Virus record (IMG/VR): IMGVR_UViG_2880389630_000006
Source of the DNA: a virus
Taxonomy: Duplodnaviria > Heunggongvirae > Uroviricota > Caudoviricetes
Length of the DNA: 41,015 nucleotides
Strand: one strand, 5' to 3'
Below the pieces are notes generated by a model, which was not told where the DNA came from, searched no databases, and worked only from the letters and a program-made list of their open reading frames with translations. Position numbers and translations under genes: made by a program. Position 1 is the stretch's first letter; each line of letters starts with the position of its first letter. This document shows, piece by piece, positions 6,328 to 41,015 of the stretch.

Positions 6328-6592
6328 TTTACATCGCACTCCTCTTGTGCCATAGTAATCAGGCACTGGCAAAATCCAGTGCCGGGATTGGCGTCCCGGG
6401 TTACTACAGAGGCACATATGCCGCATAAGCGGTTTTTTTATGTGTAAAGCGCACCTATTCTATGGTGGGCTGTGTGGGGGCACCGAAAGGTGCGCCGGGT
6501 CCTTTGTAGCCGGTTACGCCAACCCTGCACAGTTCACCACCAACCGATTGGCGTCGGTAGTGGTGATTAACCTAACTACAAAGGTGATCACT

Positions 6593-7279
6593 ATGACTGC
6601 TAACGTAACCCCATCTGTTTTTCATTTTGAATCAGAAGCAACCATTCGAGCCATTGTTATTGATGGAAATCCTTGGTTTGTTGCCAAAGACGTTATTAAA
6701 GCTCTTCAACTGACAAACCCCACTATGTCAATAAAATCTCTTGATGATGATGAAAGGGCTAAATTTAACTTAGGCCGTCAAGGCGAAACCAATATTATCA
6801 ACGAGTCAGGCCTCTACACACTGATCCTCCGCTGCCGCGACGCAGTGACACCAGGCACTATCCCCTACCGCTTTCGTAAATGGGTTACAGGTGAGGTTCT
6901 TCCTCAGATCCGCCGCACCGGAAGTTACATTAAAAACTCGCTCCCGCAGGAAGAACGCATAAAGATGGTTGCCGACCAGGTAGCCAACGCCACAGCATCA
7001 GCAGTGATGCAGGCAATGAAGATAGAGAACAAAACCTACAGCGCCCCACTGAAGCCCGGCTACCGCAGTCTGATTCATTCTCCGTCTGGTGTTCTCGGCC
7101 TGACGGAGAACTCACTGCTGATGAATCTGCTGAACCAGTTACAGGACGACGGGCACGACGTATCGGGTGCGGCGGCAGAGCTGACCACCATGTTTTGCTA
7201 CATCGTCGGTGTGAGCAAATGCCTGCGTGATATCCAGACGCACGCGGAGTACATCAACGACAAGGCAGGGTTCTTCTGA
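6593..7279 (+). CDS. Phage antirepressor, Bro-N domain family
   Basis: ATG at 6593 with SD aaggtga; N-terminus (IRAIVIDGNPWFVAKDVIKALQL...ESGLYTLILRCRDAVTPGTIPYRFRKWVTGEVLPQIRRTGSY) is Bro-N/antirepressor-like. Confidence 0.8.
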   Translation: MTANVTPSVFHFESEATIRAIVIDGNPWFVAKDVIKALQLTNPTMSIKSLDDDERAKFNLGRQGETNIINESGLYTLILRCRDAVTPGTIPYRFRKWVTGEVLPQIRRTGSYIKNSLPQEERIKMVADQVANATASAVMQAMKIENKTYSAPLKPGYRSLIHSPSGVLGLTENSLLMNLLNQLQDDGHDVSGAAAELTTMFCYIVGVSKCLRDIQTHAEYINDKAGFF

Positions 7280-7343
7280 CGAGCGGCGGCACAGGGATGT
7301 GCCTTTAAATAATTCTGTACAGATTGCAGGTGAATAGCTTACT

Positions 7344-7360
7344 ATTACCTCACGGGTGAT
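7344..7360. promoter_or_regulatory. Operator-like site ATTACC-TCACG-GGTGAT (one mismatch)
   Basis: Same motif family; right half GGTGAT equals the lambda operator half-site. Confidence 0.35.
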
Positions 7361-7447
7361 CCATAGCGATTAGGCACCGATACAGGAGGAGCCCACATGA
7401 GAAAATTTGACGAGTACGAAGGCGTTTAACATTCGGATAGTTTAATG

Positions 7448-7471
7448 ACGGGGCCATTAGGCCCCGTTTTC
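7448..7471 (+). terminator. Rho-independent terminator / possible attenuator
   Basis: Stem acggggcc/ggccccgt with loop atta, then TTTT; sits between a 10-codon micro-ORF (7397-7429, strong AGGAGG SD) and the GTG start of the 7489 gene. Confidence 0.7.
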
Positions 7472-7488
7472 ATGTCTGGAGACAGTTT

Positions 7489-8028
7489 GTGTTAAGTGAA
7501 GAAATGCAATTTGCCATGGCTGTGGCTCAAATCGTAAGTGCAGTCGCGGTTTCGCTTGGCTTGTTCATAGCTATCGCTACTATTATTTATAATGTAAATA
7601 CAGCGAGAAAAGTACACACTTCAGTATTCCTTGGTGAAAGCAGGTTTGATGTAGATTATAAGAAAGGCCTATCTACTATGCGCCGCATTCACGAATCGAA
7701 CAAATCATTCCGCTCTTATATGTATCCAAGCAATGGGCAGGCTGATCTTACGGATGAAGAAAAGACAGAGAAGAGAGAAATAATTTACTGTCTAGGTTTC
7801 TACGAACGCATGGCTGTGAGCGTGAAGCGGAAAACTTATGATGAGACCATGATTAAGGAAGTATTTTACAGCTCCGTTGTAAATAACTATCAGATTGCGC
7901 TACCTCTTATACAAGCCATTAGAGAAAAAGAAAACATAAACACATATTTTAAAGAATATGAATGGTTGGCCACACGATGGAAGGATTGCCCATTGAAGGA
8001 TAAATCCCCGTGGTACAAGTTTTGGTAA
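7489..8028 (+). CDS. Membrane-anchored protein of unknown function (AT-rich moron; candidate superinfection-exclusion or abortive-infection protein)
   Basis: 179 aa; GTG start with SD ggag 8 nt upstream (alternative ATG at 7504); single N-terminal TM helix (AMAVAQIVSAVAVSLGLFIAIATIIY) then a soluble domain; markedly AT-rich relative to its neighbours; opposite strand to the structural operon. Confidence 0.6.
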   Translation: MLSEEMQFAMAVAQIVSAVAVSLGLFIAIATIIYNVNTARKVHTSVFLGESRFDVDYKKGLSTMRRIHESNKSFRSYMYPSNGQADLTDEEKTEKREIIYCLGFYERMAVSVKRKTYDETMIKEVFYSSVVNNYQIALPLIQAIREKENINTYFKEYEWLATRWKDCPLKDKSPWYKFW

Positions 8029-8029
8029 G

Positions 8030-8052
8030 CCAGCGCTGCGGGCTTTTTTTTG
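8030..8052 (+). terminator. Probable intrinsic terminator after the membrane-protein gene
   Basis: GC-rich imperfect dyad (gccagcgctgcgggc) immediately followed by TTTTTTTT. Confidence 0.45.
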
Positions 8053-8123
8053 TGGACGAAACAAAAGTCAGTGCTACACTCATTGACGCCACATTGAGGT
8101 GGCTTATGGATGGAAATTTCACA

Positions 8124-8285
8124 ATGAAAAAAGCATTTGCTGCACTGTTCGTTTTGTTGTCTCTGGTAGCTTCAACTCAGGCCTTTGCCGGCCGTTGTCA
8201 GCACGACAGCGATACTGCCGCTGACGGCTCCCGCTGCGGTGGGCGTTCTGCGGATTCCCGCCCTGGCGGCGGTGGCATTCGTTAA
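8124..8285 (+). CDS. Possible small secreted Cys-containing peptide
   Basis: MKKAFAALFVLLSLVASTQAFA signal peptide then a 31-aa Gly/Arg/Asp-rich segment with 2 Cys; weak SD (alternative ATG at 8106). Speculative. Confidence 0.3.
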   Translation: MKKAFAALFVLLSLVASTQAFAGRCQHDSDTAADGSRCGGRSADSRPGGGGIR

Positions 8286-8308
8286 AAACAAGGCCGCGAA
8301 AGCGGCCT
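8282..8308 (-). terminator. Rho-independent terminator ending the minus-strand structural operon
   Basis: Perfect hairpin aggccgc-gaaa-gcggcct (8291-8308), followed on the minus strand by a T-run (plus-strand aaaaac at 8284-8289). Confidence 0.6.
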
Positions 8309-8320
8309 GTGACATGTCAC
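8309..8320. repeat. 12-bp perfect palindrome GTGACATGTCAC, copy 1 of 3 (function unknown)
   Basis: Exact sequence; lies between the lipoprotein stop codon and the terminator hairpin. Confidence 0.9.
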
Positions 8321-8323
8321 GAC

Positions 8324-8737
8324 TTATAAAGATGACTGATATTTTACAACTCTGTTCATGGCATCTTTTTTCACCGAGCTGATATCAGTTCTTATTTTGG
8401 CTTCGTCATTACTGCTTATCATGCTATTAATTTTTTGCACTGACATGCCGTTTCTTTCAGCCATTGCACATACAGCAGCATCGTATGAAGAACTCGCTGC
8501 GATGGATATCACCTTGTTACACTCAAACACAGCACCTTCAGCAATATCAGATGCCGATGAGGCTGGCTTGGTATAAGTCTTGACGTAGTGATCAATACAA
8601 CTATCCTTCGCCGTCTTGGCAAGAGAAAAATCCACTTTAACTTTGTCGCAATATGCCTTATCAACACCGTCATAAACATCATAGGATGTCGAGCAAGCGG
8701 ATATCAAAAATACCGATAACAGCAATAATTCCTTCAT
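8324..8737 (-). CDS. Lipoprotein, last gene of the structural operon (candidate receptor-masking or exclusion lipoprotein, or tail accessory protein)
   Basis: Lipobox LISAC after a signal peptide; SD aaggaac; 6 further Cys residues; immediately downstream of the 824-aa virion protein gene. Confidence 0.65.
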   Translation of the reverse strand: MKELLLLSVFLISACSTSYDVYDGVDKAYCDKVKVDFSLAKTAKDSCIDHYVKTYTKPASSASDIAEGAVFECNKVISIAASSSYDAAVCAMAERNGMSVQKINSMISSNDEAKIRTDISSVKKDAMNRVVKYQSSL

Positions 8738-25152: not shown

Positions 25153-25229
25153 GTGGCATTAGCTCAGTCGGACAGAGCAACCGCCTTCTAAGCGGTTGGT
25201 CGCAGGTTCGAATCCTGCATGCCACGCCA
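25153..25229 (+). tRNA. tRNA-Arg (anticodon UCU)
   Basis: Hand-folded cloverleaf: 7-bp acceptor stem GTGGCAT/ATGCCAC, D-arm gctc-agtcggaca-gagc, anticodon stem accgc/gcggt with loop CT-TCT-AA, T-arm gcagg-TTCGAAT-cctgc, discriminator G plus encoded CCA. Resembles but is not identical to enterobacterial argU. Confidence 0.85.
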
Positions 25230-28068: not shown

Positions 28069-28281
28069 TCAAAGTCCATCAAATTCATCGTAAAAACTCT
28101 CGTCAAGATACCATTCCCATTTACCGCGAATGAAAATTACATCCTCGCCGCAAGGGTGCTGACTGTCGATAACTATATCCCTCCTGGCGCAACCATACTT
28201 ATTCATGAGAAATTTAACCTCTTTCGGAAAATTTGCTGAGTTATCTCTCATATCTTCAAGGTCGTAGCGTATTTTTGGCAT
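28069..28281 (-). CDS. Hypothetical small protein
   Basis: ATG at 28281 (MPKIRYDL...); AT-rich; the track's GTG start at 28302 lies inside the 12-bp palindrome. Confidence 0.4.
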   Translation of the reverse strand: MPKIRYDLEDMRDNSANFPKEVKFLMNKYGCARRDIVIDSQHPCGEDVIFIRGKWEWYLDESFYDEFDGL

Positions 28282-28290
28282 AACACCTTC

Positions 28291-28302
28291 GTGACATGTC
28301 AC
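28291..28302. repeat. 12-bp perfect palindrome GTGACATGTCAC, copy 3 of 3
   Basis: Exact sequence, overlapping the stop codon of the 28299-28640 gene. Confidence 0.9.
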
Positions 28303-28640
28303 ACTATTAATTTCGTTTCATGCCAGCCTTTGGTCACCCAGCATTGCGAGTCACCATTACACGGGCATGAATTAACTGGAACTCTCTCGCCGCACTTACC
28401 GCAACGTTTTCTGCTGATCGATTTTATACGCCCGCGCACGCGTGCATCATCCTGGCGGATCAGTAACGCTATATACTCACCAAATTCGTAAGGCGCACGC
28501 CCGGGGCGACGCGTGGCACAGTTACGCTCCAGCATTTCAATTTCCTGAGCATCAAGCACAATTTCCAGCTTACGCACACCAGATGCAGCTTGTCTGGCTC
28601 TCTGAGCGGCTTTGCGCTCTGCTGCTGATTTAGCCATCAA
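28299..28640 (-). CDS. Small basic protein with C-terminal Cys-rich (zinc-ribbon-like) segment
   Basis: 113 aa; RKRCGKCGERVPVNSCPCNGDSQCW cysteine cluster; basic N-terminus. Confidence 0.45.
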   Translation of the reverse strand: MMAKSAAERKAAQRARQAASGVRKLEIVLDAQEIEMLERNCATRRPGRAPYEFGEYIALLIRQDDARVRGRIKSISRKRCGKCGERVPVNSCPCNGDSQCWVTKGWHETKLIV

Positions 28641-28672
28641 TATTTACCTTTATCGCGAACACATTTACCGGT

Positions 28673-28915
28673 TTATCTCCTTTGCATAGCACGTAATTTT
28701 TTCAGATGGTTCTCCTGTTCTGTTTCAGCCAGGATCTGGTGATATTCTCTGTGATCAATGTGTTCGAATAAATTATTGAATTTTCTGATGCACACTCTTC
28801 CAGGATAGCCATCCATCCTCTTGAAGAATACTGAGTGATCAGTACTACGAATGATTTTTACTGGATAGCCAGCGCTATCGGTGTATATCTGACCACGTTG
28901 AATCAGAGAGAACAT
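28673..28915 (-). CDS. Hypothetical small phage protein
   Basis: 80 aa ORF, AT-rich. Confidence 0.4.
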   Translation of the reverse strand: MFSLIQRGQIYTDSAGYPVKIIRSTDHSVFFKRMDGYPGRVCIRKFNNLFEHIDHREYHQILAETEQENHLKKLRAMQRR

Positions 28916-28981
28916 TCGTTTATCCCCAGATAAAAATATAGCAATACCAATTACATAAAATACTTCAGGCCAAGCATCATT

Positions 28982-29515
28982 TCACCCCTGCGGCGGTTCT
29001 GGTAGAGGCATCCAATTGATTACATCGCATTTAGGGATGCTGATATCATCACCAAGCCACCCTTGACCTTCAGACCAGCATTGCACGTAATACCCGTATT
29101 CTGTGTTCACTACGCACCACTGCGCGTCGTTCGGCATTCGATCACTACAGCTTATCCAACCATCCGGAGTTACCGGAGTTGGTCCATCGAATTCGGGCAT
29201 GTCAGGACCTTTTCTGATAGCTTTAGCCAGCTCCAGCGGGTCATCGTAAAGCCAGTCGCCAGTTTGTGGGTGATTTGCTTCTGCAAGCTGCGCAGCCCAT
29301 TCAAGACCATCTTTTTGACCTTGGAGATAATCAAGTGGCAACTCTTCATGATTACTTGCAGGTTCGGCACTATCAGCTTCGCGCCGCTTCTGTAGCTCTG
29401 CTGCCATTGCTCTCACGACTTCAACTGGTGCCCTTGCAGCAAACTCTATGTTGGTGATCAGCTCATTAAGATATTGCTCGCCTGGATACTGTTTCTTATC
29501 GGTTATAGTGGTCAT
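28982..29515 (-). CDS. DUF551-like phage protein (tentative)
   Basis: ATG at 29515 with SD AAGGAGAG; C-terminal W/C-rich segment (WISCSDRMP...WMPLPEPP) resembles the DUF551 signature. Confidence 0.45.
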   Translation of the reverse strand: MTTITDKKQYPGEQYLNELITNIEFAARAPVEVVRAMAAELQKRREADSAEPASNHEELPLDYLQGQKDGLEWAAQLAEANHPQTGDWLYDDPLELAKAIRKGPDMPEFDGPTPVTPDGWISCSDRMPNDAQWCVVNTEYGYYVQCWSEGQGWLGDDISIPKCDVINWMPLPEPPQG

Positions 29516-29516
29516 A

Positions 29517-29924
29517 TCACTCTCCTTTCCCATGAAGCATAGCGGCGCGGCAGGCGTTCCATATTTCGGCAGCAATATCGCGCTCGCTATCGGTTAATTT
29601 GTACGTGGAAACATAGCCAGAGAGCATTTCTACGTTTTCCGGAGTTGCTTCTTCCGGCACTACCGGCGCTGGCGGGGCGGCAAATAGATATCCGCCAAAG
29701 TCAGGAAGCTCTCCAATGGCCTGTACGAACTTTTGTTTGCCTACGTCAACTCCTAATGGGTAATGAGCTATAATCTTTGCCACCGGCTCTGCTTCCAGCG
29801 ATAACAGTGCAATTCGTGCCAGTTCTTCCGCTTCTTCTGCTGGCAGTACAACGTTGCTACCCGGTCCGTATGTTTCGCGCCACTGCTTGATTGTCAGCAG
29901 TCGCCCTTTGGTAATAGTGATCAT
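29517..29924 (-). CDS. Hypothetical phage protein
   Basis: 135 aa ORF coupled to its neighbours. Confidence 0.45.
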   Translation of the reverse strand: MITITKGRLLTIKQWRETYGPGSNVVLPAEEAEELARIALLSLEAEPVAKIIAHYPLGVDVGKQKFVQAIGELPDFGGYLFAAPPAPVVPEEATPENVEMLSGYVSTYKLTDSERDIAAEIWNACRAAMLHGKGE

Positions 29925-30436
29925 GCCGCGTTTCCTTCTTTCTTATTAACAATCACACCGTCATATATTTCATTAAGGTGCCCTCTCAACTCCATGCGCC
30001 TTAATGCAGATAACATGTAATCGCATTCAACCTGCTTATTCCCAGTAAATGGCTTATCGTCAGGATTACCCCAACAGCAATTACCCCTGGGCCATCCATG
30101 TACTTTCCGTACTCTTCCGTTAACAACGTGAAGTAATCCCCAGCCGGGAGGTAAATCCTCAACTGAAATAATTTCCGGCTCACTAATAAAGAATCGCCAG
30201 TCGCCCATGCCAAGTGAGGGATTTTTACGGAAACGCTTTTTTCTATCTGCCAACAAGTCAGCACGAGAACACTTCGCCTCTATCAGGCATGATGCTGAAT
30301 TTCTGAATCCCATAGCATCTGGCTGTTCTCCGGTACTGGTTACAGCAACAAAGCGGTCATGAAAGCAAACCTTGAACCCGTTGCGCTTAAGGAACTTGTA
30401 CGCAATCTGACAGAGTTCGTGGTGTGTTAACGCCAT
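29921..30436 (-). CDS. PD-(D/E)XK nuclease-like protein (tentative)
   Basis: ATG at 30436 with SD AAGGAGAG; D...EAK motif (PDAMGF...CLIEAKCS) consistent with a restriction-endonuclease-like fold. Confidence 0.4.
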   Translation of the reverse strand: MALTHHELCQIAYKFLKRNGFKVCFHDRFVAVTSTGEQPDAMGFRNSASCLIEAKCSRADLLADRKKRFRKNPSLGMGDWRFFISEPEIISVEDLPPGWGLLHVVNGRVRKVHGWPRGNCCWGNPDDKPFTGNKQVECDYMLSALRRMELRGHLNEIYDGVIVNKKEGNAA

Positions 30437-30437
30437 A

Positions 30438-30881
30438 TCACTCTCCTTTGATGCGAATGCCTGTTGCAATGCTGTTTATGATGCTGTCAGTGCATGGGGT
30501 AGAAAGCTGGGCATCTCCAGCAATTTTCATGACCTCAACATCTGCATATCGAATACCGAGGTGTATCAGACCGGCTATGCCTGACTTAAGCCGAGCATTT
30601 TCCATAAATAGAACTTTTGCCCGCTGTTTTTCTGCTTCAAGCTCAACGCGCAGCTTCCCTACCGTTAGCGCAATATCCTCGTTCTCCTGATCGCGGCTTT
30701 TGATGTATTGCAGGTTTCTTTCCCGTTCATCCAACAATGCCAGCGCGATATCTGGCGAAAAGTGCTTCATAAAATCGTTAAGCGCATTAATTCGCTGATC
30801 GAAAGGCATTACAGGTGCTTCACCAGCAATTTTTGTTTTTTCAGCGATTTCACGAAGCTTTTGATAATCAATCTTGCTCAT
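30438..30881 (-). CDS. Ead/Ea22-like protein
   Basis: N-terminus MSKIDYQKLREIAEK and coiled-coil centre typical of lambdoid Ea22-like proteins. Confidence 0.5.
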   Translation of the reverse strand: MSKIDYQKLREIAEKTKIAGEAPVMPFDQRINALNDFMKHFSPDIALALLDERERNLQYIKSRDQENEDIALTVGKLRVELEAEKQRAKVLFMENARLKSGIAGLIHLGIRYADVEVMKIAGDAQLSTPCTDSIINSIATGIRIKGE

Positions 30882-31315
30882 TGGATGACTCCTTTACGAA
30901 GCTGGGCGGCTAACTCATCACATATGTGCGTCAAAGAACAAAGTTTGATTGATGGATGTTCGCGCATCATCTCTACCCCCTGCGCCCGCACTTCAGACAG
31001 GAAAGCATCGGTGGCTGGCATATTTCCTGTTGCCTTCATTGCCTCCAAAATAACCAGAACGCCATCTCGCCCAATCTCCTCGCAGATAACCTCGGTGCTG
31101 TCGCCAACAACATCGCAAAATGCCTGAACTGCTTTACGAGCCAGCGCATTCTCCGCAGCCAGCGCATTAGCACGCACCAGTTGCACTTCCAGCTGCGTTG
31201 CCAAATCGCTGATCAGCTTTGCCACACTGCGCATATCAACGGCACCACATTCTGCTTTCAGTTCCGAAGCCATCTCATGCCCGGCGGAAACTAACCCTTT
31301 GATATTACTTTCCAT
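30878..31315 (-). CDS. Hypothetical phage protein
   Basis: 145 aa ORF overlapping the downstream start. Confidence 0.45.
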   Translation of the reverse strand: MESNIKGLVSAGHEMASELKAECGAVDMRSVAKLISDLATQLEVQLVRANALAAENALARKAVQAFCDVVGDSTEVICEEIGRDGVLVILEAMKATGNMPATDAFLSEVRAQGVEMMREHPSIKLCSLTHICDELAAQLRKGVIQ

Positions 31316-33253: not shown

Positions 33254-34050
33254 GCTTCAGGGCTGTTCCAGTGCGGAACGTTGTTATCAGGTAATGTTGA
33301 TTGCTTCTGTCTGCTAATCTGCAGCCGCCTTGCCAGCTTCTGCTCCCACTGTGCCTGATGGTATGCCTTACCCTCAGCCATCCAGTAAATTCTGAACTCT
33401 GCAAGTTCCTGTGCCGTTGGCAGACTGTCCAGGTAGATCCCCTGCAATGAGCTTTTCCGAAGAAAGTCATCTGATGGCTGCCATTGTTCATGCATGACAA
33501 ATTTGCCTAATTGCCCTGGCCCACCAGGAGGAACAAAGTTATTCATCACGGCGTTGTTTGCTCCGGGGTCATGAGGCACAGAATCCCCGCTTTTTGTCCT
33601 GCTCTCCCTCTCTTGGTTAAATGACTGGTTATATGACTGGTTCTGGATCCCGTTTTTGGGATCATTCAACATCCCGTTTTTGGGATCATTCAACATCCCG
33701 TTTTTGGGTATATTCCCGTTTTCGGGTATATTCCCGTTTTCGGGTTCATTGCCCCCCTCCCGGTTGCCTTTAATGTTCCCGTTTTTGGTTATATTAAGAG
33801 AGAAAACCCGCACTCTTTTTGTCGCTCCCTTTCTCTCTCCGGTATCTGAAATAATCCCCATTTTCATGAGCGATATAAGCCCGGCCTGCACGGTTTTTTT
33901 ATTCAGGCAAGTGTCTTTAACGAGGCGTTCTATGCTGGGGTAGCAGAGGTTATATTCATCGGCTCTGTCAGCCATCGAGAGCAGTATGAGCTTTAATGAT
34001 GAGCTACCTGGATCTGTCTCCCAAGCCCAATCTGTTGCATGTCTGCTCAT
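33235..34050 (-). CDS. Replication initiator O-like protein
   Basis: HTH-containing N-terminus, iteron array inside the coding region (Asn/Gly/Pro peptide repeats), immediately upstream of the P-like gene. Confidence 0.7.
   Translation of the reverse strand: MSRHATDWAWETDPGSSSLKLILLSMADRADEYNLCYPSIERLVKDTCLNKKTVQAGLISLMKMGIISDTGERKGATKRVRVFSLNITKNGNIKGNREGGNEPENGNIPENGNIPKNGMLNDPKNGMLNDPKNGIQNQSYNQSFNQERESRTKSGDSVPHDPGANNAVMNNFVPPGGPGQLGKFVMHEQWQPSDDFLRKSSLQGIYLDSLPTAQELAEFRIYWMAEGKAYHQAQWEQKLARRLQISRQKQSTLPDNNVPHWNSPEAWEDFL
33647..33796. repeat. Replication-origin iterons (about 6 copies, core TCCCGTTTT(T/C)GGGAT)
   Basis: Two identical 24-bp units atcccgtttttgggatcattcaac (33647-33670, 33671-33694), then four shorter variants through 33796, followed by an A/T-rich tract; palindromic core like lambda ori iterons. 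Confidence 0.7.
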
Positions 34051-34682: not shown

Positions 34683-34747
34683 TTCACCCATAAGGTAACA
34701 AAAATCAAGGATAGTTACCTATGGGGTGCATTTACCTGTTGGGTAAT
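34683..34747. promoter_or_regulatory. Immunity-region operator cluster (three 17-bp sites) with divergent promoters
   Basis: Sites TTCACC-CATAA-GGTAAC (34683-34699), GTTACC-TATGG-GGTGCA (34714-34730), TTTACC-TGTTG-GGTAAT (34731-34747) in the 154-bp gap between the Cro-like and repressor genes. Confidence 0.55.
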
Positions 34748-34801
34748 ATTGCTTTAAATTGAATCATCTACTGATTCATATATGAGGCGATTTTCCAGAA
34801 A

Positions 34802-35386
34802 ATGAAAAGTATCCAGGACGTCCGCAGGCAAAATCTCAACGACTTGATCGACCGTGAATTCAATGGTGTTCAGACGCGGATGGCAGAAAAACTTGGAACT
34901 CAGGCAAATCTGGTAAACCGCTGGGCTCTTGGCAAGAAGGTTATCGGCGACCAGGTTGCGCGAAAAATTGAAGCTGCCGCCAATAAACCCCGTAACTGGC
35001 TTGATATCGATCGCTCGCTTTCTCAGGAAGGTTTTCAGCCTGTCGGCCCAAGCGACATTGGTCAGCTGGCAGCTCACAACCTGGAACGCTGGATGAGTGA
35101 AAGCCGCGACCTTTCAACTCAGGGAAAACTTCACCGCGCATCCGGCGTCGCCCAGGTGACAATCAGCCGCCTGTTAAACAATGAGGTCAGCGTTTCCATT
35201 TCCACCCTGGAGAATGTTGCATCCGCATTCGGGCGTCACGGATATGAACTACTGATTCACCCGCACGACCCTGCGACTATCAACTATGACCGCTCACGCT
35301 ACGCATTGTTACCCGAAACCGAGAAAGCAAAGATCGAAAGTTACATTGAATTTGTCATCAACCAGAACGAAAAAAACAAACAATAA
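34802..35386 (+). CDS. Prophage repressor, tandem HTH-XRE domains, no S24 peptidase domain
   Basis: Two HTH-like segments (GVQTRMAEKLGTQANLVNRW and ASGVAQVTISRLLNNEVSVSISTLENVASAF); no Ala-Gly/Ser-Lys autocleavage motifs; divergent to the Cro-like gene. Confidence 0.65.
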   Translation: MKSIQDVRRQNLNDLIDREFNGVQTRMAEKLGTQANLVNRWALGKKVIGDQVARKIEAAANKPRNWLDIDRSLSQEGFQPVGPSDIGQLAAHNLERWMSESRDLSTQGKLHRASGVAQVTISRLLNNEVSVSISTLENVASAFGRHGYELLIHPHDPATINYDRSRYALLPETEKAKIESYIEFVINQNEKNKQ

Positions 35387-35406
35387 AACCATATTTTTCA
35401 GTAAGT

Positions 35407-35431
35407 AAGCCGCCTTATGGCGGCTTTTTTA
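35407..35431 (+). terminator. Rho-independent terminator after the repressor gene
   Basis: Stem aagccgcc/ggcggctt, loop ttat, then TTTTTT. Confidence 0.85.
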
Positions 35432-35442
35432 TTGCCTATTCG

Positions 35443-35521
35443 ATTACCTAACGGGTAATTTTTTTAACTCATATCTATTGACATCAAACCATATACGCAT
35501 AATTATTACCTCAACGGTAAC
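35443..35521 (+). promoter_or_regulatory. Early promoter with two operators (OL-like)
   Basis: ATTACC-TAACG-GGTAAT (35443-35459); TTGACA at 35478-35483; A/T-rich -10 region overlapped by ATTACC-TCAAC-GGTAAC (35505-35521). Confidence 0.5.
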
Positions 35522-35539
35522 AGACCGAGGTAACAAGTT

Positions 35540-35692
35540 ATGCAGTGGAAAATCATCAACGGTTGGTACTGCGTTACTGCATGCGGATTCATGAGCTGGA
35601 AGTTCCGCACCTTACAGGAAGGCATTAAGTGGGCTTTCGTCAGCAAAGAAGCTCGCGATGTGGCCAACGATAACGAGATATGGGAGGGCTGA
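35540..35692 (+). CDS. Small ORF (50 aa), first gene of the early operon
   Basis: ATG at 35540 with GAGG 9 nt upstream; MQWKIINGWYCVTACGFMSWKF...; below the 60-aa track cut-off. Confidence 0.35.
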   Translation: MQWKIINGWYCVTACGFMSWKFRTLQEGIKWAFVSKEARDVANDNEIWEG

Positions 35693-35694
35693 TA

Positions 35695-35994
35695 ATGAAC
35701 GTTAATCAGCAGAAAAATCTTCAAAAAATCATGCTGGCATTCGACAAGGACTACCGTCTGTCAGAACAGCTATATGACCGACAAGTTGAACTGATTGAGA
35801 GTATCCGGCTTCATCAACTGGCATCAACTTTCGACGTTGTAACAGTTAAAGGCGTTCGCCAGGAAGTACTGGAGGCCGCTAAAGACAGCCCTGAGTTCGA
35901 AGAACTAATGGATGCCTACCGGCGCGAGGCAATGGCAATTATCGCCCGCTGGGATCTGGCTGATCAGCTTGATGGGCAGAGGGACGCGGCATGA
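35695..35994 (+). CDS. Hypothetical early protein
   Basis: 99 aa from ATG at 35695 (MNVNQQKNLQ...), acidic; overlaps the exonuclease start. Confidence 0.45.
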   Translation: MNVNQQKNLQKIMLAFDKDYRLSEQLYDRQVELIESIRLHQLASTFDVVTVKGVRQEVLEAAKDSPEFEELMDAYRREAMAIIARWDLADQLDGQRDAA

Positions 35995-36812
35995 AACCGG
36001 GAATTTATTTCGACATCAGCAACGAAGACTACCACGCCGGTGACGGCGTGAGTAAGTCGCAACTGGACATGGTTGCCAAGAATCCGGCGCTTCTTAAATG
36101 GGTTCAGGCAGCACCAGAAGACGAAGAGAAAAAGTCTGCACTGGATATGGGAACCGCATTGCACTGTCTGCTTCTGGAGCCTGGAGAGTTCGACAAACGC
36201 TTCATTGTTTCACCGAAATTCGATCGTCGGACGAAACAAGGTAAAGCTGACGAAGAGGAATTTCTTCGTGATGTGGCGGATATGGGGATTACGGTACTTG
36301 ATGCCGAGCAGTGGCGGAAACTGGAGCTGATGCGTGATAGCGCAATGGCTCACCCGGCGGCACGCTGGATGCTGGAAGCACCTGGTTACTGCGAAGCATC
36401 AATGTACTGGAACGATGAAGAGACGGGGGAGTTGTGCCGAATTCGTCCAGACAAATGGCTGAACGAGCACAACGTGATCGTCGACGTGAAAAAGGTTGCA
36501 GATATGGACCGTTTTGCACGCCACATCGAGGAATTCCGCTACCACGTGCAGGACGCAATGTACCGCGAAGGCGCAATGAGGGTTACTGGTCAGCCGCATG
36601 GTTTTTTCTTTCTTGCCGTGAGCGAAAGCATTGATTGTGGTCGGTATCCGGTACGCGTGTTCGAGCTGGATGCGCAGGATGTCGATGCCGGGCACGCTCT
36701 GTTCCGCCGGGATCTGAATACCTATCACGAATGCCGCATCAATGATGAATGGGGCGGTGTGGAAATCATTAAACGCCCTGAGTGGGCACGCAAACAGGAT
36801 ATGTACATATGA
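35991..36812 (+). CDS. RecE-like PD-(D/E)XK exonuclease (exonuclease VIII-type)
   Basis: 273 aa; D...IVDVKK core motif; size and context match prophage exonuclease VIII-like genes; upstream of and overlapping an annealase gene. Confidence 0.65.
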   Translation: MKPGIYFDISNEDYHAGDGVSKSQLDMVAKNPALLKWVQAAPEDEEKKSALDMGTALHCLLLEPGEFDKRFIVSPKFDRRTKQGKADEEEFLRDVADMGITVLDAEQWRKLELMRDSAMAHPAARWMLEAPGYCEASMYWNDEETGELCRIRPDKWLNEHNVIVDVKKVADMDRFARHIEEFRYHVQDAMYREGAMRVTGQPHGFFFLAVSESIDCGRYPVRVFELDAQDVDAGHALFRRDLNTYHECRINDEWGGVEIIKRPEWARKQDMYI

Positions 36813-37750
36813 GCAACGACATCGCAAACATCAACGCACCAGTAGACACAGCAATCGCTGGAACTGCTGCAACTATTTTCAGCCCAGACGGCTTGAACCA
36901 ACTGATGAAATTCGCCGAGGTAATGGCGCAAAGCCGCGTAACGGTACCGGCGCACCTCGCCGGGAAACCAGCTGATTGCATGGCCGTGGCAATGCAGGCT
37001 GCGCAGTGGGGAATGAACCCGTTTGCCGTGGCTCAGAAAACCCATGTTGTGAACGGCACGCTAGGTTATGAAGCCCAATTAGTAAACGCAGTTATCTCAA
37101 CGATGTCGCCAACAAAAGATCGCATCAACTACGAGTGGTTCGGGCCGTGGGAACGCGTGATCGGTAAGTTTGTTGAGAAAACATCCAAAAACGGCAATCC
37201 ATATATCGCACCAGGCTGGACTCTAAAAGACGAAGAAGGCTGCGGTGTTCGCGTATGGGCAACCATGAAGGGCGAGGATCAACCTCGAGTGCTTGAGTTA
37301 ATGCTGTCTCAAGCACAGGTAAGAAACTCCACACTTTGGGCCAGTGATCCGAAACAACAACTCGCATACCTTGCGACAAAACGCTGGTCTCGCCTGCACT
37401 GTCCTGACGTAATCATGGGCGTCTACACCCCAGACGAATTACAGGAAACGGCACCGCGCGTTGAGCGAGACATTACTCCGCAAACGACCACTGCTGCGGG
37501 AATGAACAGTCTGATCAACGCTAAACCAGCGAAAAAGCCTGATGAGCAAACGCGTAAATCGGACAGCCGTGATCCAGAAGAAATGCTGATGGCCTTTACC
37601 AGCGCAGCGATGAATTACAGCACTGTCTCCGAACTGGATAAGGCTTACAAATACATTGCACAAAAACTTTCAGATGATGACGAACTGCTGGCAAAAGCAA
37701 CCGACGTTTACAGCGTTCGTCGGGAAGAATTAAACGAAACATCTATGTAA
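36809..37750 (+). CDS. RecT-family single-strand annealing protein (tentative)
   Basis: ATG at 36809 overlaps the exonuclease stop (ATGA); size and pairing with the exonuclease suggest a RecT/Bet-type annealase. Confidence 0.5.
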   Translation: MSNDIANINAPVDTAIAGTAATIFSPDGLNQLMKFAEVMAQSRVTVPAHLAGKPADCMAVAMQAAQWGMNPFAVAQKTHVVNGTLGYEAQLVNAVISTMSPTKDRINYEWFGPWERVIGKFVEKTSKNGNPYIAPGWTLKDEEGCGVRVWATMKGEDQPRVLELMLSQAQVRNSTLWASDPKQQLAYLATKRWSRLHCPDVIMGVYTPDELQETAPRVERDITPQTTTAAGMNSLINAKPAKKPDEQTRKSDSRDPEEMLMAFTSAAMNYSTVSELDKAYKYIAQKLSDDDELLAKATDVYSVRREELNETSM

Positions 37751-37799
37751 CCACCACCGCGGCGCCACGTGCGCCGCACTGCAACCAAGAGAGGTATTC

Positions 37800-38048
37800 A
37801 TGAAAGGTGCATTAGGTAAGAAAGAACTCCTGGCGGTGGTGCCACTGTCATGGAGCACTATCGACCGTATGGAGCGCGCAGGGGAATTTCCTAAACGCTG
37901 GTATATCACCGATAAACGCTGCGCATGGAACCGTGATGAAGTTGAGCGTTGGCTTGATGAACGTCAGGCAGCAAGCCCGGCAGAGTTCCAGGGTAAAAAG
38001 CCTCCTGTTCAGCAACGTGTATATCGTCCCGTGAGCAACGCTGCATGA
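37800..38048 (+). CDS. AlpA-family HTH protein (transcriptional regulator / excisionase-like)
   Basis: LSWSTIDRMERAGEFPKR...AWNRDEVERWL matches the AlpA/Xis-type winged-helix pattern. Confidence 0.55.
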   Translation: MKGALGKKELLAVVPLSWSTIDRMERAGEFPKRWYITDKRCAWNRDEVERWLDERQAASPAEFQGKKPPVQQRVYRPVSNAA

Positions 38049-38157
38049 GTGCGCTGCTAAGGCACTGGAGCAAATGGTCAGGATGGTACTTATTCCTGGC
38101 CTCTGTTTCAGCATGGCTTTATCTGCTGGCATTAATTTTCAGAGAGGGTTGGATTAA

Positions 38158-38457
38158 GTGAGAAAGTTAAGCCGACTTGAAAAATATCACATGAATAAGG
38201 TTTCAATGCGCAGTCCGTCAAAGATTGTCGCCGTTACTCCTGCGGCGATAGAGATCGAAAAACGCGCGATTGAAAGAGAGAAAAAAGGGCAATTCCGCAT
38301 TGCCGCTCACCTTTGGCTTCAGTGTATGGATGTTGCTTCTGGTGATGTTGAACGTGCAAGGATCGCGGTTCGCAGGGACCAATGTATCACAAAAGGTAAC
38401 GGCCTTCGCCGTGGCGACTATAGCGGCATAGGATGTTGTGGGGTGGTTTATGACTAA
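38158..38457 (+). CDS. Small regulator-like protein, possibly PerC-family
   Basis: Segment RIAAHLWLQCMDVASGDVERARIAVRRDQCI resembles the PerC-family core as I recall it; start is ambiguous (GTG 38158 with SD, or ATG 38191). Confidence 0.35.
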   Translation: MRKLSRLEKYHMNKVSMRSPSKIVAVTPAAIEIEKRAIEREKKGQFRIAAHLWLQCMDVASGDVERARIAVRRDQCITKGNGLRRGDYSGIGCCGVVYD

Positions 38458-39100
38458 GAAATACACACTAATCTATGCAGATCCACCCTGGGTATACCGG
38501 GACAAAGCCGCAGATGGTAATCGCGGTGCCGGTTTTAAATATCCGGTTATGAGTGTGCTGGATATCTGCCGCCTTCCTGTGTGGGATTTGGCCGATGAAA
38601 ACTGTCTGTTGGCCATGTGGTGGGTGCCAACACAACCACTCGAAGCACTAAAAGTTGTTGAAGCCTGGGGATTCCGTCTGATGACGATGAAGGGCTTCAC
38701 GTGGATAAAATGTGGTAGTCGACAACCAGATAAACTGGTTATGGGTATGGGACACATGACTCGCGCCAATAGTGAAGATTGCCTGTTTGCGGTAAAGGGA
38801 AAACTACCTACGCGCATTAATGCAGGGATCGTTCAGTCATTTACCGCACCGCGGCTTGAGCATTCAAGAAAGCCAGATATCGTTCGTGAAAAACTTGTGC
38901 AATTATTAGGCGATGTTTCTCGCATTGAACTGTTCGCCCGCCAGACGTCTCATGGCTTCGATGTTTGGGGTAATCAGTGCGAAGACCCGGCAGTGCAACT
39001 ACACCCTGGATACGCGTTGGATATCGGCGGATTAACAAATGCATTCAGCAATGCTCCGCTGTCACCAACAGACAACCAGGGGCGGGAGCGTGCAGCATGA
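38450..39100 (+). CDS. MT-A70 family N6-adenine DNA methyltransferase
   Basis: Catalytic DPPW motif ([10 protein letters not shown]) near the N-terminus; 216 aa. Confidence 0.8.
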
Positions 39101-39756
39101 ACCTATATCAACGCATCAATGGCGCTGACTGGTGCAATATCTTCGTCGTCGGCGATCTGCATGGGTGCTACACGCTGCTGATGAACGAACTCGACAAAGT
39201 TTCATTCGACCCGGCGCGCGATTTGCTTATTTCCGTTGGTGACCTTGTTGACCGCGGCGCTGAAAACGTCGAATGCCTGGATTTGATTACTATGCCGTGG
39301 TTCCGAGCTGTTCGTGGCAACCATGAGCAGATGATGCTGGATGCACTGGTCAACGGCGGAAGTTTCGGACATTGGATGTCAAACGGCGGTGGATGGTGGC
39401 ACCAACTTGATTCTGAGCAGGATGTGCAACTCAAATACCTTCTGCCAAAGGTTACCAACCTCCCGATGATTATCGAACTGGTTACCGGCAATAAGAAGGT
39501 CGTCATCTGCCACGCAGACTACCCGCACAACGAATACGCATTCGATAAGCCAGTACCGGAAGAAATGGTGATATGGAATCGTGAGCGGGTTAGCGACGCG
39601 CAGGACGGTATTGTCTCGGAGATAACCGGTGCCGATTTGTTCATCTTCGGTCATACGCCAGCACATCACCCACTGGTGTATGCAAACCAAATGTACATCG
39701 ACACCGGCGCAGTGTTCTGCGGAAATCTGACGCTTACCAAAGTCCAGGAAGGATAG
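39097..39756 (+). CDS. Ser/Thr protein phosphatase, lambda-PPase-like metallophosphoesterase
   Basis: Motifs GDLHGC, GDLVDRG, GNHE and GHTP in canonical order; start overlaps the methyltransferase stop. Confidence 0.85.
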
Positions 39757-39758
39757 AA

Positions 39759-41015
39759 TTATTTATTACTGTCTTCCATCCACTTCTCAAACTTCGACGG
39801 GGAGAACGGAATCAGATCCGTATGCTCCCCGTTAATCCAGGAATCAATCATATCGGCCCACTGCTGCAACATGTAGGCGCGCTGTCTGGCGTATTCCGCT
39901 TTGTTATATACGGCGCGCACACCTTTCTGCTCGTGTGCCAGAGCCTTTTCAATCCAGTCTGAAGGATAACCAGCCTCATGCAACAATGTACTGGCTGTAC
40001 GGCGCATATCATGTACAGTAAAATCCTGAATATGCTCACCATCTTCATTTATTATTTTCACCGTTCTGTCGATCAGAGAGTTCAGCGCGGCATTAGATAA
40101 TGGCTTCCGGAAATTGTAACGACCAGGAACCAGATATTCACTTCCACCAGCGCACATCTGCAACCCGACTAATATATCCTGTGCCTGTTTAGGCAGGTAA
40201 ATAACGTGCGCCCGACTTCCCTTCATGCGGTCTGAAGGAATTGTCCATGTCCATTTTTTAAAATCTATTTCATCCCACGTTGCATTGGTGAATTCTCCCT
40301 TACGAACCATGGTGATAAGCACCAGCTTTAAAGCCATTTTCATAGTGCCCATAGCACCAATGGCATCCAGCGTGCGGAAGAACAGGCCAATTTCTTCTGG
40401 TGTCAGTGTTCGCTCTCGTGGTTTAAATATGGCGATAGACGAAGGTTTAATGTCAGCCGCAGGATTAAACAAACCATGACCACGGTCATTGGCGTGACGG
40501 TATACGCTGCTGATGATCTCCCTGGCCTGTACTGCTGTTGCCCGACCACCGCGTTCGACAATCCGGTCACACAAATCACGAACCATTGATGTGGTAATTT
40601 CAGCCATCATTTTGTTGCCAAGAACCGGAAGTATGTCACGGTCGATCACCGCCTGCTTCATTGCGCGGGTACTGTCAGCCAGGATGACGTGTTTCATATA
40701 ACTGTCGGTATGTACCGCAAACGTCTCGGCACCACGAATCTTTTTAATACCGTCACGTTTAGCCGCAGCCGGTGACTGGCCTGCTTTAAGCAGCTTCTTT
40801 GCAGCAATCAGTTCTTCTCGCGCTTCTGCCAGGCTGATACCGTCACGCCCATACTGCCCGATTACCAGTGTTTCGCGGCGACCGTTGATACGGTAGTCAT
40901 AGCGAAACGAGACCGTGCCTGACGTAAGCACAGCTACATACAGCCCGTCACGATCGGAGACCTTGTACAGTTTGTCCTGCGGCTTGAGGTTTTTTAATTT
41001 TGTATCGGTAAGCAC
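39759..41015 (-). CDS. int: Tyrosine integrase, N-terminus truncated by the window edge
   Basis: N-terminal LTDTKLKNLKPQDKLYKVSDRDGLYVAV (integrase arm-binding domain); C-terminal catalytic region with HDMRRT and ...GYPSDWIEKALAHE...VRAVYNKAEY; the reading frame runs off the window at 41015. Confidence 0.85.
   Translation of the reverse strand: MLTDTKLKNLKPQDKLYKVSDRDGLYVAVLTSGTVSFRYDYRINGRRETLVIGQYGRDGISLAEAREELIAAKKLLKAGQSPAAAKRDGIKKIRGAETFAVHTDSYMKHVILADSTRAMKQAVIDRDILPVLGNKMMAEITTSMVRDLCDRIVERGGRATAVQAREIISSVYRHANDRGHGLFNPAADIKPSSIAIFKPRERTLTPEEIGLFFRTLDAIGAMGTMKMALKLVLITMVRKGEFTNATWDEIDFKKWTWTIPSDRMKGSRAHVIYLPKQAQDILVGLQMCAGGSEYLVPGRYNFRKPLSNAALNSLIDRTVKIINEDGEHIQDFTVHDMRRTASTLLHEAGYPSDWIEKALAHEQKGVRAVYNKAEYARQRAYMLQQWADMIDSWINGEHTDLIPFSPSKFEKWMEDSNK

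Follow-up and report, generated by a model that had tools for sequence, protein, structure and literature searches.

Gene content and transcriptional layout

The window, by which we mean the whole 41,015 nucleotide stretch of DNA that was analysed, carries five plus-strand open reading frames between positions 37800 and 39756 (Table 1). A preliminary description of this region had named four of them, as genes for an AlpA-like protein, a PerC-like protein, an MT-A70 methyltransferase and a phosphatase; its coordinates proved exact, all four identities were correct by family matches, and the genes are real and conserved, not chance reading frames. The fifth, encoding a 38-aa membrane peptide, had been missed. 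Each gene after the first starts within the end of its predecessor. The coordinates of the convergent integrase gene begin two bases past the phosphatase stop, and its start codon lies at the last base of the window.

Table 1. Coordinates of the genes and signals in and around the region 37800-39756.
Feature	Position	Strand	Evidence or remark
Early-left promoter region	35443..35521	+	Promoter with two flanking operator-like palindromes
GC-rich hairpin GCGGCGC-CACGU-GCGCCGC	37759..37777	+	recT-alpA spacer; no T-run after it
AlpA-family winged-helix protein, 82 aa	37800..38048	+	Family and structure matches
Single-transmembrane peptide, 38 aa	38045..38161	+	phrog_17484, 2.6e-27; ATGA overlap with alpA stop
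PerC-family protein, 99 aa, GTG start	38158..38457	+	PF06069, phrog_868; GTGA overlap with peptide stop
Orphan MT-A70 (beta-class) N6-adenine methyltransferase, 216 aa	38450..39100	+	PF05063; overlaps PerC-like stop by 8 nt
Lambda NinI-type Ser/Thr (PPP-family) metallophosphatase, 219 aa	39097..39756	+	1G5B; ATGA overlap with methyltransferase stop
Swapped cassette	39103..39775		Replaces DUF1382 gene segment of phiV10 and TL-2011b
P4-type tyrosine integrase	39759..41015	-	Arm-DNA-bind_3, Phage_int_M and catalytic domain; convergent with operon

A sigma-70-like promoter (TTGACA-17-AATTAT) was located at 35478-35506, just beyond the terminator of the repressor gene (35407-35436), with an operator-like palindrome (TTACC-N5/6-GGTAA) on either side of it, at 35443-35459 and 35505-35521. 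At the corresponding place in epsilon15 the annotation marks repressor-binding sites. Neither an internal promoter nor a plus-strand terminator was detected between 35540 and 39756 by a simple consensus scan, which could miss a weak promoter, and over 34700-41015 a single promoter-like site was seen against 6.1 ± 2.4 expected. By the same kind of scan the genes at 37800-39756 lack the promoter and terminator of their own that mark a moron. Their placing at the end of the early operon, as had been proposed, is borne out by the start and stop overlaps, the single upstream promoter-like site and the failure to find a plus-strand terminator. The five genes, together with the rest of the operon, are probably silent in the lysogen and expressed at induction or infection.

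The spacer between recT and alpA holds a hairpin (-17 kcal/mol, z -2.6). It is kept in phiV10, epsilon15 and BUCT554, where changes in one arm are compensated in the other; the epsilon15 annotation has a stem-loop at this position, upstream of gp33.

Relatives of the prophage and conservation of the genes

From its sequence, the window is a phiV10/epsilon15-like (Uetakevirus) temperate podophage prophage beside guaA, the gene that lies beyond the integrase in E. coli Ec55. The region 37700-39800 was 100% identical to Ec55 and eight other genomes among the matches listed, and 98.3% identical to Escherichia phage vB_EcoP_PAS61 (OQ921333). The Ec55 prophage is collinear with the window, but two segments (~6.6-8.7 kb and 28.1-31.2 kb) are divergent, which rules out identity over the full length. 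Phage PAS61 and the prophages of Ec55, VE-V11-M and other E. coli have the five genes and the integrase in the same order and with the same product names, and show essentially no difference from the window in gene content; the PGAP annotation of these relatives omits the 38-aa reading frame and starts the PerC-like gene 16 codons later.

Identity to phiV10 was 98-99% over 37700-39102, where the similarity stopped. In phiV10 (gp36-gp31) and TL-2011b the alpA, transmembrane peptide, PerC-like and MT-A70 genes were 98-100% identical to those of the window; RecE and RecT are annotated in phiV10 as a single fused gene. Epsilon15, the Salmonella phage that is the type species of Uetakevirus, has homologous proteins of 77-87% identity in the same order (gp33-gp29), namely AlpA (85%), the 38-aa peptide (82%; gp32, curated as a membrane protein), the PerC-like protein (78%) and MT-A70 (77%), with a small reading frame, gp30, between the PerC-like and methyltransferase genes, where BUCT554 has DUF1317. 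In BUCT554, from Enterobacter, identities were 78% for AlpA, 74% for the PerC-like protein and 81% for MT-A70, and a small reading frame occupies the position of the peptide. The order recE-recT-hairpin-alpA-TM-perC-(DUF1317)-MT-A70-(slot)-int is common to epsilon15 and BUCT554. The gene set and its arrangement are already known, being annotated publicly in phiV10, epsilon15, PAS61 and hundreds of E. coli genomes.

Because AlpA, the peptide, the PerC-like protein and MT-A70 occur in Salmonella and Enterobacter relatives, and the PerC-like gene also in Klebsiella relatives, these genes belong to the genus core. They are conserved genus-wide, and among collinear relatives only the phosphatase shows the variable presence expected of a moron. 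The description of the region as cargo therefore holds for the phosphatase and fails for AlpA, the PerC-like protein and MT-A70, the order of which is conserved.

A phosphatase gene in a variable slot before int

The phosphatase matched the structure of lambda NinI/ORF221 (PDB 1G5B) with an E value of 7e-100 and 66.8% identity over 217 ungapped residues, and phrog_246 'NinI-like' with 1e-108. It has the GDxHG, GDxVDRG and GNHE motifs and the metal ligands by which homologues of lambda PPase are recognised, and nine of nine catalytic and metal-binding residues are kept, identical to those of lambda NinI (D20, H22, D49, R53, N75, H76, H139, R162 and H186). Scores fell below the NCBIfam equivalog cut-offs (NF008516, 266 against 326 bits; NF007425, 221 against 332). 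The ninI genes of HK225 and phi80 are ~79% identical to it in DNA. The location is different: lambda ninI belongs to the early-right nin region, between the replication genes and Q, whereas the window gene ends the early-left operon, between the methyltransferase gene and int.

Breakpoint alignments placed the left end of the exchanged segment after a common ATGAAC, which contains the start codon, and the right end within the last codons of int. By these alignments the phosphatase is a clean single-gene cassette, swapped into a slot before the convergent integrase. In phiV10 (65 aa) and TL-2011b the slot holds a DUF1382 gene, in epsilon15 it holds a serotype-conversion gene, and in BUCT554 it is empty; PAS61 and BP9 have the phosphatase there, as does the window. 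The full phosphatase-bearing module was found in 143 of the 643 E. coli records having any match. Exchange of the integrase along with the phosphatase was rejected, as the integrase is 99% identical to that of phiV10 over residues 1-413 of 418, only the last five residues differing, and the point at which the megablast match stopped was the end of the query.

The phosphatase might be an anti-defence gene, selected for and not neutral baggage, that reverses abortive infection by Ser/Thr/Tyr kinases or hydrolyses a nucleotide signal. The gene is intact with a complete active site, it was inserted precisely, as the last gene of the early operon, it is maintained in the 143 E. coli records, and its family is related to the ApaH/PrpE diadenosine tetraphosphatases. 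Lambda ninI, however, is non-essential, of unknown function and without known phenotype (PMC10695390, PMC3224144), and neither a biological role nor a defence link for NinI was found in the literature. We regard an anti-defence function as unlikely.

The AlpA protein and the integrase

The AlpA protein scored 24.2 bits against PF05930, above the curated cut-off of 21, and matched both phrog_66 'excisionase and transcriptional regulator' (2e-16) and the solved AlpA-family structure 8c3t (E 1.8e-11). A P4-type integrase with an Arm-DNA-bind_3 domain is encoded convergently 1.7 kb downstream in the same prophage. Since the epsilon15 homologue, gp33, is curated as 'excisionase and transcriptional regulator', in agreement with phrog_66, the protein is more likely an excisionase (recombination directionality factor) of the adjacent integrase than a free-standing host regulator.

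The PerC-like protein

The assignment to PerC had been given with low confidence, a caution that was not needed at the family level: the protein scored 30.1 bits against PF06069, over a gathering cut-off of 22.6 (residues 35-80, profile positions 5-50 of 90), and matched phrog_868 over its full length (6e-62). All the invariant residues (E, R, A, W, R and C in a 19-member alignment) of the PerC core signature, E-x2-G-x-[WFY]-R-x-A-A-x2-W-L-x3-D...R...RR-x2-C, are present. Since the clade conserves residues 1-24, the start calls that give 84 aa in RefSeq and 89 aa in phiV10 look too short. The structure model predicted four helices with a three-helix MIT/TPR-like core; a fold search with it gave non-significant MIT/TPR-like three-helix matches only (best E 0.3), and a profile search of the PDB gave no match. 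The score against the ANR family was 23.6 bits, below the cut-off of 32. Pairwise identity was 29% over 49 aa with YfdN and 45% over 49 aa with an uncharacterised 104-aa member of the family (P0275).

PerC of EPEC and PchABC of EHEC, which activate LEE1 by displacing H-NS (PMC4764244), have PF06069 and the core signature in common with the window protein, and its epsilon15 homologue, gp31, is curated as an activator. The similarity of the window clade to PerC/PchABC was seen, however, only in profile comparison; the clade has an extra conserved N-terminal helix and a C-terminal YSGI..GVVYD tail, and its genes are core to Salmonella, Enterobacter and Klebsiella phages, upstream of the methyltransferase. 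A tblastn search of 72,556 plasmids (E<=10) recovered the clade itself and one weak match (E 5), to a PerC-family gene of a Salmonella IncI1 plasmid. The hosts of the phages that conserve the clade are not known for a LEE island. The parallel that had been drawn with activators of host virulence loci does not transfer to a protein whose clade is conserved in phages of such hosts and whose one plasmid match outside the clade, in that search, was weak.

A broader form of the same idea would have the prophage express the four named genes as lysogenic-conversion cargo, with the PerC-like protein acting on virulence loci, the methyltransferase on the host epigenome and the phosphatase on host signalling. 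It would fit with the membership of the Pch/PerC activators of LEE1 in the PerC family (PMC4764244), with the slot before int, which does hold a lysogenic-conversion gene in epsilon15, and with the presence of the phosphatase in only some relatives. Against this, all of the four except the phosphatase are core genes in phages of Salmonella and Enterobacter, the PerC-like one being present in Klebsiella phages too. The window PerC clade is tied to the rest of its family by profile similarity only, no promoter of their own was detected by consensus scan, the starts overlap upstream stops and the operon promoter has operator-like sites on both sides. Cargo of this kind appears to us quite improbable.

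The methyltransferase

The methyltransferase matched PF05063 over profile positions 1-172 of 172 (2.8e-22) and has the catalytic motif DPPW at residues 11-14. Its AlphaFold2 model (pLDDT 77, pTM 0.77) corresponds to a bare METTL3-like catalytic domain with a low-confidence C-terminal tail. Foldseek matched the model to METTL3 (E 3e-13, TM 0.65) and MTA1 (E 7e-12); human METTL3 and ciliate MTA1 are the closest solved relatives, and the epsilon15 homologue is curated as Mettl3-like. Eukaryotic MT-A70 catalytic subunits require a partner subunit, and for the window enzyme a homodimer is assumed. On sequence and model, both this enzyme and the phosphatase look competent.

The methyltransferase gene is flanked by the PerC-like and phosphatase genes. 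No partner restriction endonuclease was found among the annotations of the collinear Ec55 prophage, nor by Pfam in ten reading frames from the two most divergent segments, five of which had no Pfam match of any kind; within that annotation and those ten frames, the claim that the enzyme lacks a recognisable restriction partner stands. No published specificity or characterisation of the enzyme was found in the literature. CATG occurs 172 times in the window against ~160 expected and GATC 153 times against ~160, so neither is depleted or enriched.

Orphan adenine methyltransferases of other prophages are silent in the lysogen, act promiscuously once cloned and are presumed to shield phage DNA (PMC5778455, PMC3526280, PMC4659465). 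M.EcoGI/GII, M.CsaIII and M.BceSVII are, like the window enzyme, orphan and prophage-borne, with a presumed role in protecting phage DNA during lytic growth (PMC5778455, PMC3526280), and, like them, the window enzyme is probably repressed in the lysogen. Homology with M.EcoGI/GII was nevertheless rejected: M.EcoGII is a 349-aa DPPY enzyme of another beta-class branch, unlike the 216-aa DPPW MT-A70 domain described here. Likewise rejected were homology with M.EcoGIX, which is plasmid-borne and single-strand-specific, and kinship with the promiscuous methyltransferases of Drozdz et al. (M.HaeV and relatives), which are alpha-class.

It had been proposed to find the target by comparing the methylomes of a lysogen and a cured strain, an absence of any prophage-dependent methylation motif, and of any transcriptional effect of the small regulators, counting as refutation. 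As no promoter of its own was found, the early promoter is flanked by operator-like sites and the precedents are silent, this comparison would be uninformative and the refutation criterion unsound; the result would probably be negative even with a fully active enzyme. Methylation should instead be sought in induced cultures, in virion DNA or with the cloned gene.

Pairing of PerC-like and methyltransferase genes

A degenerate DNA pattern for the PerC core was used to search IMG/VR, and 27 loci were examined. In 22 of them a DNA methyltransferase gene lay 0-1.7 kb downstream on the same strand; three of the remaining five were too short to judge. The methyltransferases came from four unrelated Pfam families (PF05063, PF05869, PF02086 and a PF00145+PF05869 fusion), many of the pairs had overlapping stop and start codons, and some stood behind a ParB-HTH gene. 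Pairing was also seen in SfV, ST64B, mEp460, a Stx2a phage and CPS-53 of K-12. At SfV orf40-dam, ST64B sb43-sb44 and K-12 yfdN-yfdM an orphan adenine methyltransferase gene has a PerC-family gene immediately before its start. These three differ from the window in that their PerC domain has a winged-helix-like domain fused to it on the N-terminal side, their methyltransferase belongs to PF05869, and the two genes are placed behind the replication genes in the early-right operon. The Uetakevirus pair lies in a different operon with a different upstream neighbour.

These data raise the possibility that the two genes are a functional pair and that PerC proteins are dedicated companions of phage DNA methyltransferases, which might control expression or activity of the methyltransferase, clear H-NS from phage DNA or neutralise a host nuclease that depends on methylation. 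On this view Pch/PerC would have been co-opted for virulence secondarily. We advance this tentatively. The loci are not phylogenetically independent (~6 of 10 clades were paired), and the lambdoid phages have both genes behind the replication genes, a stretch in which methyltransferases are frequent in any case, so that position alone could account for part of the signal. PerC genes without a nearby methyltransferase occur in N4-like phages, on an IncI1 plasmid and at two loci (L030 and L038). MT-A70 homologues as close as 70-78% identity were found where there is no PerC gene, which indicates that the partnership is not obligatory, and physical partnership across four different folds is unlikely. 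Two apparent PerC-MT-A70 fusions were rejected as Rosetta-stone evidence, one (P0123) reading as a one-base loss from a T-run at the gene overlap and the other (P0121) as an internal deletion.

Discussion

The best explanation of the region is that it forms the last part, furthest from the promoter, of an early-left operon under repressor control in a phiV10/epsilon15-like prophage beside guaA, and we hold the account as a whole, including the roles that follow, to be probable. One transcript would start at the operator-flanked promoter near 35478-35506, pass through gp37/gp36-like genes and the RecE/RecT-like recombination genes and run into the five translationally coupled genes; it would be shut down in the lysogen and be made upon induction or infection. 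AlpA may serve as excisionase or directionality factor for the convergent P4-type integrase, and possibly as an activator of int. The MT-A70 enzyme would methylate adenines of replicating phage DNA, allowing progeny to escape restriction in the next host; it is probably a homodimer, and its specificity is probably short or relaxed. The predicted three-helix PerC-like protein may work with or control the methyltransferase, and not host virulence genes. The phosphatase would be an optional accessory gene that the variable slot received from a lambdoid nin region; early in lytic growth its product probably removes phosphate from phosphoproteins of the host or the phage.

The region is ordinary and typical of its genus, and its sole new lead is that PerC-like genes usually lie just upstream of phage DNA methyltransferase genes, a placement shared by many temperate phages of enterobacteria, the present one included. 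That the small helical PerC proteins are primarily companions of phage methyltransferases, and the PerC/Pch activators co-opted descendants of such a phage module, is a proposal we consider doubtful as it stands. Such a companion could gate the expression or activity of the methyltransferase, open H-NS-coated DNA to methylation or block methylation-dependent restriction.

As a compact METTL3/MTA1 relative from bacteria, the MT-A70 enzyme could have practical interest if it is promiscuous. A PerC-family annotation in a prophage should not be taken to denote a virulence regulator where the gene is core to Salmonella, Enterobacter and Klebsiella phages. The pairing with methyltransferases, if it holds up under controlled comparison, would give a function to a poorly understood family and point to an evolutionary origin for the Pch/PerC regulators of EHEC and EPEC.

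Gene content of the integrase-proximal region

Five open reading frames were found on the + strand between 37800 and 39756, successive frames overlapping by ATGA, GTGA, 8 nt and ATGA. A preliminary description had listed four genes here, encoding AlpA-like and PerC-like regulators, an MT-A70 methyltransferase and a Ser/Thr phosphatase, and ORF calls and family matches bore out their coordinates and identities. The PerC call, then given with low confidence, is sound at the family level. The additional frame, between alpA and the PerC-like gene and overlapping both, encodes a conserved single-TM peptide that has no PGAP annotation in E. coli Ec55, which carries a near-collinear prophage. The names assigned by PGAP and in phage records already agree with those in the preliminary description. 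Upstream, RecE-like and RecT proteins are encoded by two overlapping genes, whereas phiV10 is annotated with a single RecE-RecT fusion protein.

Features of the window, with family or structural matches and protein identity to epsilon15
Feature	Coordinates	Strand	Match or property	Identity to epsilon15
Segment divergent from Ec55	6440-8737			
tRNA-Arg (anticodon TCT)	25153-25229	+		
Segment divergent from Ec55	~28100-31200			
Imperfect palindrome	33483-33502		ATTGTTCATGCATGACAAAT	
Operator-like palindromes (two)	35443-35521	+	TTACC-N5/6-GGTAA	
Sigma-70-like site	35478-35506	+	TTGACA-17-AATTAT	
RecE-like nuclease and RecT	35991-37750	+	PD-(D/E)XK, DUF3799 (RecE-like)	
recT-alpA hairpin	37759-37777	+	-17 kcal/mol, z -2.6	
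AlpA family, 82 aa	37800-38048	+	PF05930 24.2 bits (cut-off 21); phrog_66 2e-16; PDB 8c3t E 1.8e-11	85%
Single-TM peptide, 38 aa	38045-38161	+	phrog_17484 2.6e-27	82% (gp32)
PerC family, 99 aa	38158-38457	+	PF06069 30.1 bits (cut-off 22.6); phrog_868 6e-62	78%
PerC-like residues 35-77	38260-38388		NF033650 E 3.4e-5, 23.6 bits (cut-off 32)	
MT-A70 methyltransferase, 216 aa	38450-39100	+	PF05063 2.8e-22; DPPW, residues 11-14	77%
Lambda NinI-type phosphatase, 219 aa	39097-39756	+	PDB 1G5B E 7e-100	
Convergent gene ends	39754-39775			
P4-type integrase	39759-41015	-	convergent; 2 bases beyond phosphatase stop	87%

The region was 100% identical to Ec55 and eight further listed complete genomes, and 98.3% identical to phage vB_EcoP_PAS61; phiV10 and related phages matched the portion up to 39102 at 98-99% identity. 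The Ec55 prophage lies between yfgI and guaA, and the window is collinear with it except at ~6.6-8.7 kb and 28.1-31.2 kb. These divergent segments encode Bro-N antirepressor-like, DUF4760, DUF551 and Ead/Ea22-like proteins, and several of their small proteins had no Pfam match. The tRNA-Arg gene falls within the prophage and is oriented against the structural genes. The imperfect palindrome has a CATG-containing centre and may be the one mentioned in the preliminary description.

Core genes and the variable slot

The gene order recurs in epsilon15, type phage of the genus: RecE-like and RecT-like genes are followed by a stem-loop, by gp33 with the annotation 'excisionase and transcriptional regulator', by the membrane protein gp32, the activator gp31 and the small ORF gp30, and then by a Mettl3-like methyltransferase, a serotype-conversion gene in the last slot and the convergent integrase. 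Enterobacter phage BUCT554 shares this order with the last slot empty, and in phiV10 and TL-2011b the slot holds a DUF1382 gene. Klebsiella phages also carry the PerC-like protein (64-65% identity). The last slot was the sole variable position among the relatives compared. The label of integrase-proximal cargo thus fits the phosphatase; the AlpA, 38-aa, PerC-like and MT-A70 genes, whose order is kept in epsilon15 and BUCT554, are genus core.

In alignments, the left breakpoint of the phosphatase segment falls directly after a common ATGAAC at the start codon and the right one within the last few int codons, and the phosphatase DNA shares ~79% identity with ninI of HK225 and phi80. These data argue that the phosphatase is a single-gene cassette derived from a lambdoid source. 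Apart from its last five residues, which the swap altered, the integrase is 99% identical to that of phiV10. Among 643 E. coli records with any match to the query, 143 carried the phosphatase. It aligns without gaps to lambda PPase (66.8% identity), retaining D20, H22, D49, R53, N75, H76, H139, R162 and H186, and scored under the NCBIfam equivalog cut-offs. Lambda ninI is non-essential and its role is not known (PMC10695390, PMC3224144).

The methyltransferase

By Foldseek, the predicted methyltransferase structure (pLDDT 77) superposes on the catalytic domain of METTL3 (E 3e-13, TM 0.65) and on MTA1 of ciliates. The protein comprises this METTL3-like domain and a tail modelled with low confidence, and lacks a separate recognition domain. 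Kinship with M.EcoGII was rejected, that enzyme being a 349-aa DPPY protein as against 216 aa and DPPW here. A literature search found no report on the specificity of the window's enzyme. The preliminary description of an orphan enzyme stands: neither the Ec55 annotation nor a Pfam scan of ten ORFs from the divergent segments, five of them with no Pfam match, revealed a restriction enzyme.

Homologues with 70-78% identity have different surroundings in other phages: one lies between the ninB and ninD genes of P22-like prophages and another upstream of ParB-domain genes. The gene therefore moves as an independent module. At four database loci (L018-L021), in P22-like or lambdoid prophages, genes 70% identical to that of the window lie between ninB and ninD. 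The methyltransferase and phosphatase are thus both gene types of lambdoid nin regions too; in the window they adjoin each other within the early-left operon.

Promoter and predicted expression

A consensus scan of 34700-41015 found one sigma-70-like site, against 6.1 +/- 2.4 in shuffled sequence, a depletion of promoter-like sites across the operon. It lies directly downstream of the terminator of the repressor gene, flanked by two palindromes that resemble repressor operators; epsilon15 has annotated repressor-binding sites at the same position. No + strand terminator-like site was found between 35540 and 39756. Because the lone promoter is operator-flanked and no internal terminator intervenes, the five genes would form the distal end of a single repressor-controlled early transcript and would be off in the lysogen. 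There is no terminator between the convergent stop codons, only 2 nt apart, and early-left transcription would therefore read antisense into int. The GC-rich recT-alpA hairpin lacks a T-run and is kept in phiV10, epsilon15 and BUCT554, where changes in one arm are compensated in the other; epsilon15 annotates its counterpart as a pausing stem-loop.

Other prophage adenine methyltransferases are genomically silent, and active, often promiscuous, once cloned (PMC5778455, PMC3526280, PMC4659465). With the genes presumably off, a lysogen-versus-cured methylome comparison would probably show no difference, irrespective of the enzyme's activity, and the proposal that a lack of prophage-dependent methylation would count against a role for it does not work.

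The PerC-like protein and its methyltransferase neighbour

Residues 1-24 of the PerC-like protein are conserved across its clade (Salmonella, Enterobacter, Klebsiella and Citrobacter homologues), so the product is likely the 99-aa form with a GTG start at 38158, and the later starts that give 84 aa in RefSeq and 89 aa in the phiV10 record look wrong. The protein has the family core signature, and its profile matched 55 representative clusters among 1.84 billion proteins. The structure model has four helices, with a core of three weakly resembling MIT/TPR units. The clade profile matched 11 separate stretches of a 923-aa protein (P0248) and four of a 428-aa protein (P0264), so the core may represent a TPR-like helical unit that can be repeated. 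A sub-threshold match to an 'ANR family transcriptional regulator' model hints that the two families are related.

The characterised member Pch binds AT-rich DNA and displaces H-NS (PMC4764244). The earlier reading as a virulence regulator is unwarranted, since this clade is core to Salmonella, Enterobacter and Klebsiella phages; it is related to other PerC family members at profile level only.

In many temperate phages of enterobacteria, as in the window (38158-39100), a PerC-family gene lies directly upstream of a methyltransferase gene; further cases come from among loci L022-L048, L008-L011 and L013. A search with a degenerate DNA pattern of the PerC core recovered 27 IMG/VR loci, all with true family members, in roughly ten clades. 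A DNA methyltransferase gene followed on the same strand within 0-1.7 kb at 22 of them, a count made without a position-matched control; pairing occurred in about six clades, and three of the five remaining loci were too short to judge. The partners belong to four unrelated Pfam classes (MT-A70, PF05869, PF02086 and a C5+PF05869 fusion), some behind a ParB-HTH gene. In Uetakevirus, the genus of epsilon15, the pair occupies another operon than elsewhere and has another upstream neighbour. In K-12 CPS-53, PerC-family yfdN abuts yfdM, whose truncated methyltransferase product belongs to PF05869, an unrelated family; the pair is intact in SfV, ST64B, mEp460 and an Stx2a phage.

Position, rather than a link to PerC, could account for part of this pairing, as both genes lie after the replication genes in lambdoid phages, where methyltransferases are common anyway. 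The PerC genes of N4-like phages and of an IncI1 plasmid lack a methyltransferase neighbour. In the virulent N4-like phages (Schitoviridae) Pollock (L049) and Pylas (L050) they lie near the right genome end. No title or abstract found in a literature search on PerC/Pch and methyltransferases addressed a link. The association is a lead, not a result.

The region is an ordinary, already annotated module of a common prophage type, with a lambda-type phosphatase as its sole variable gene.
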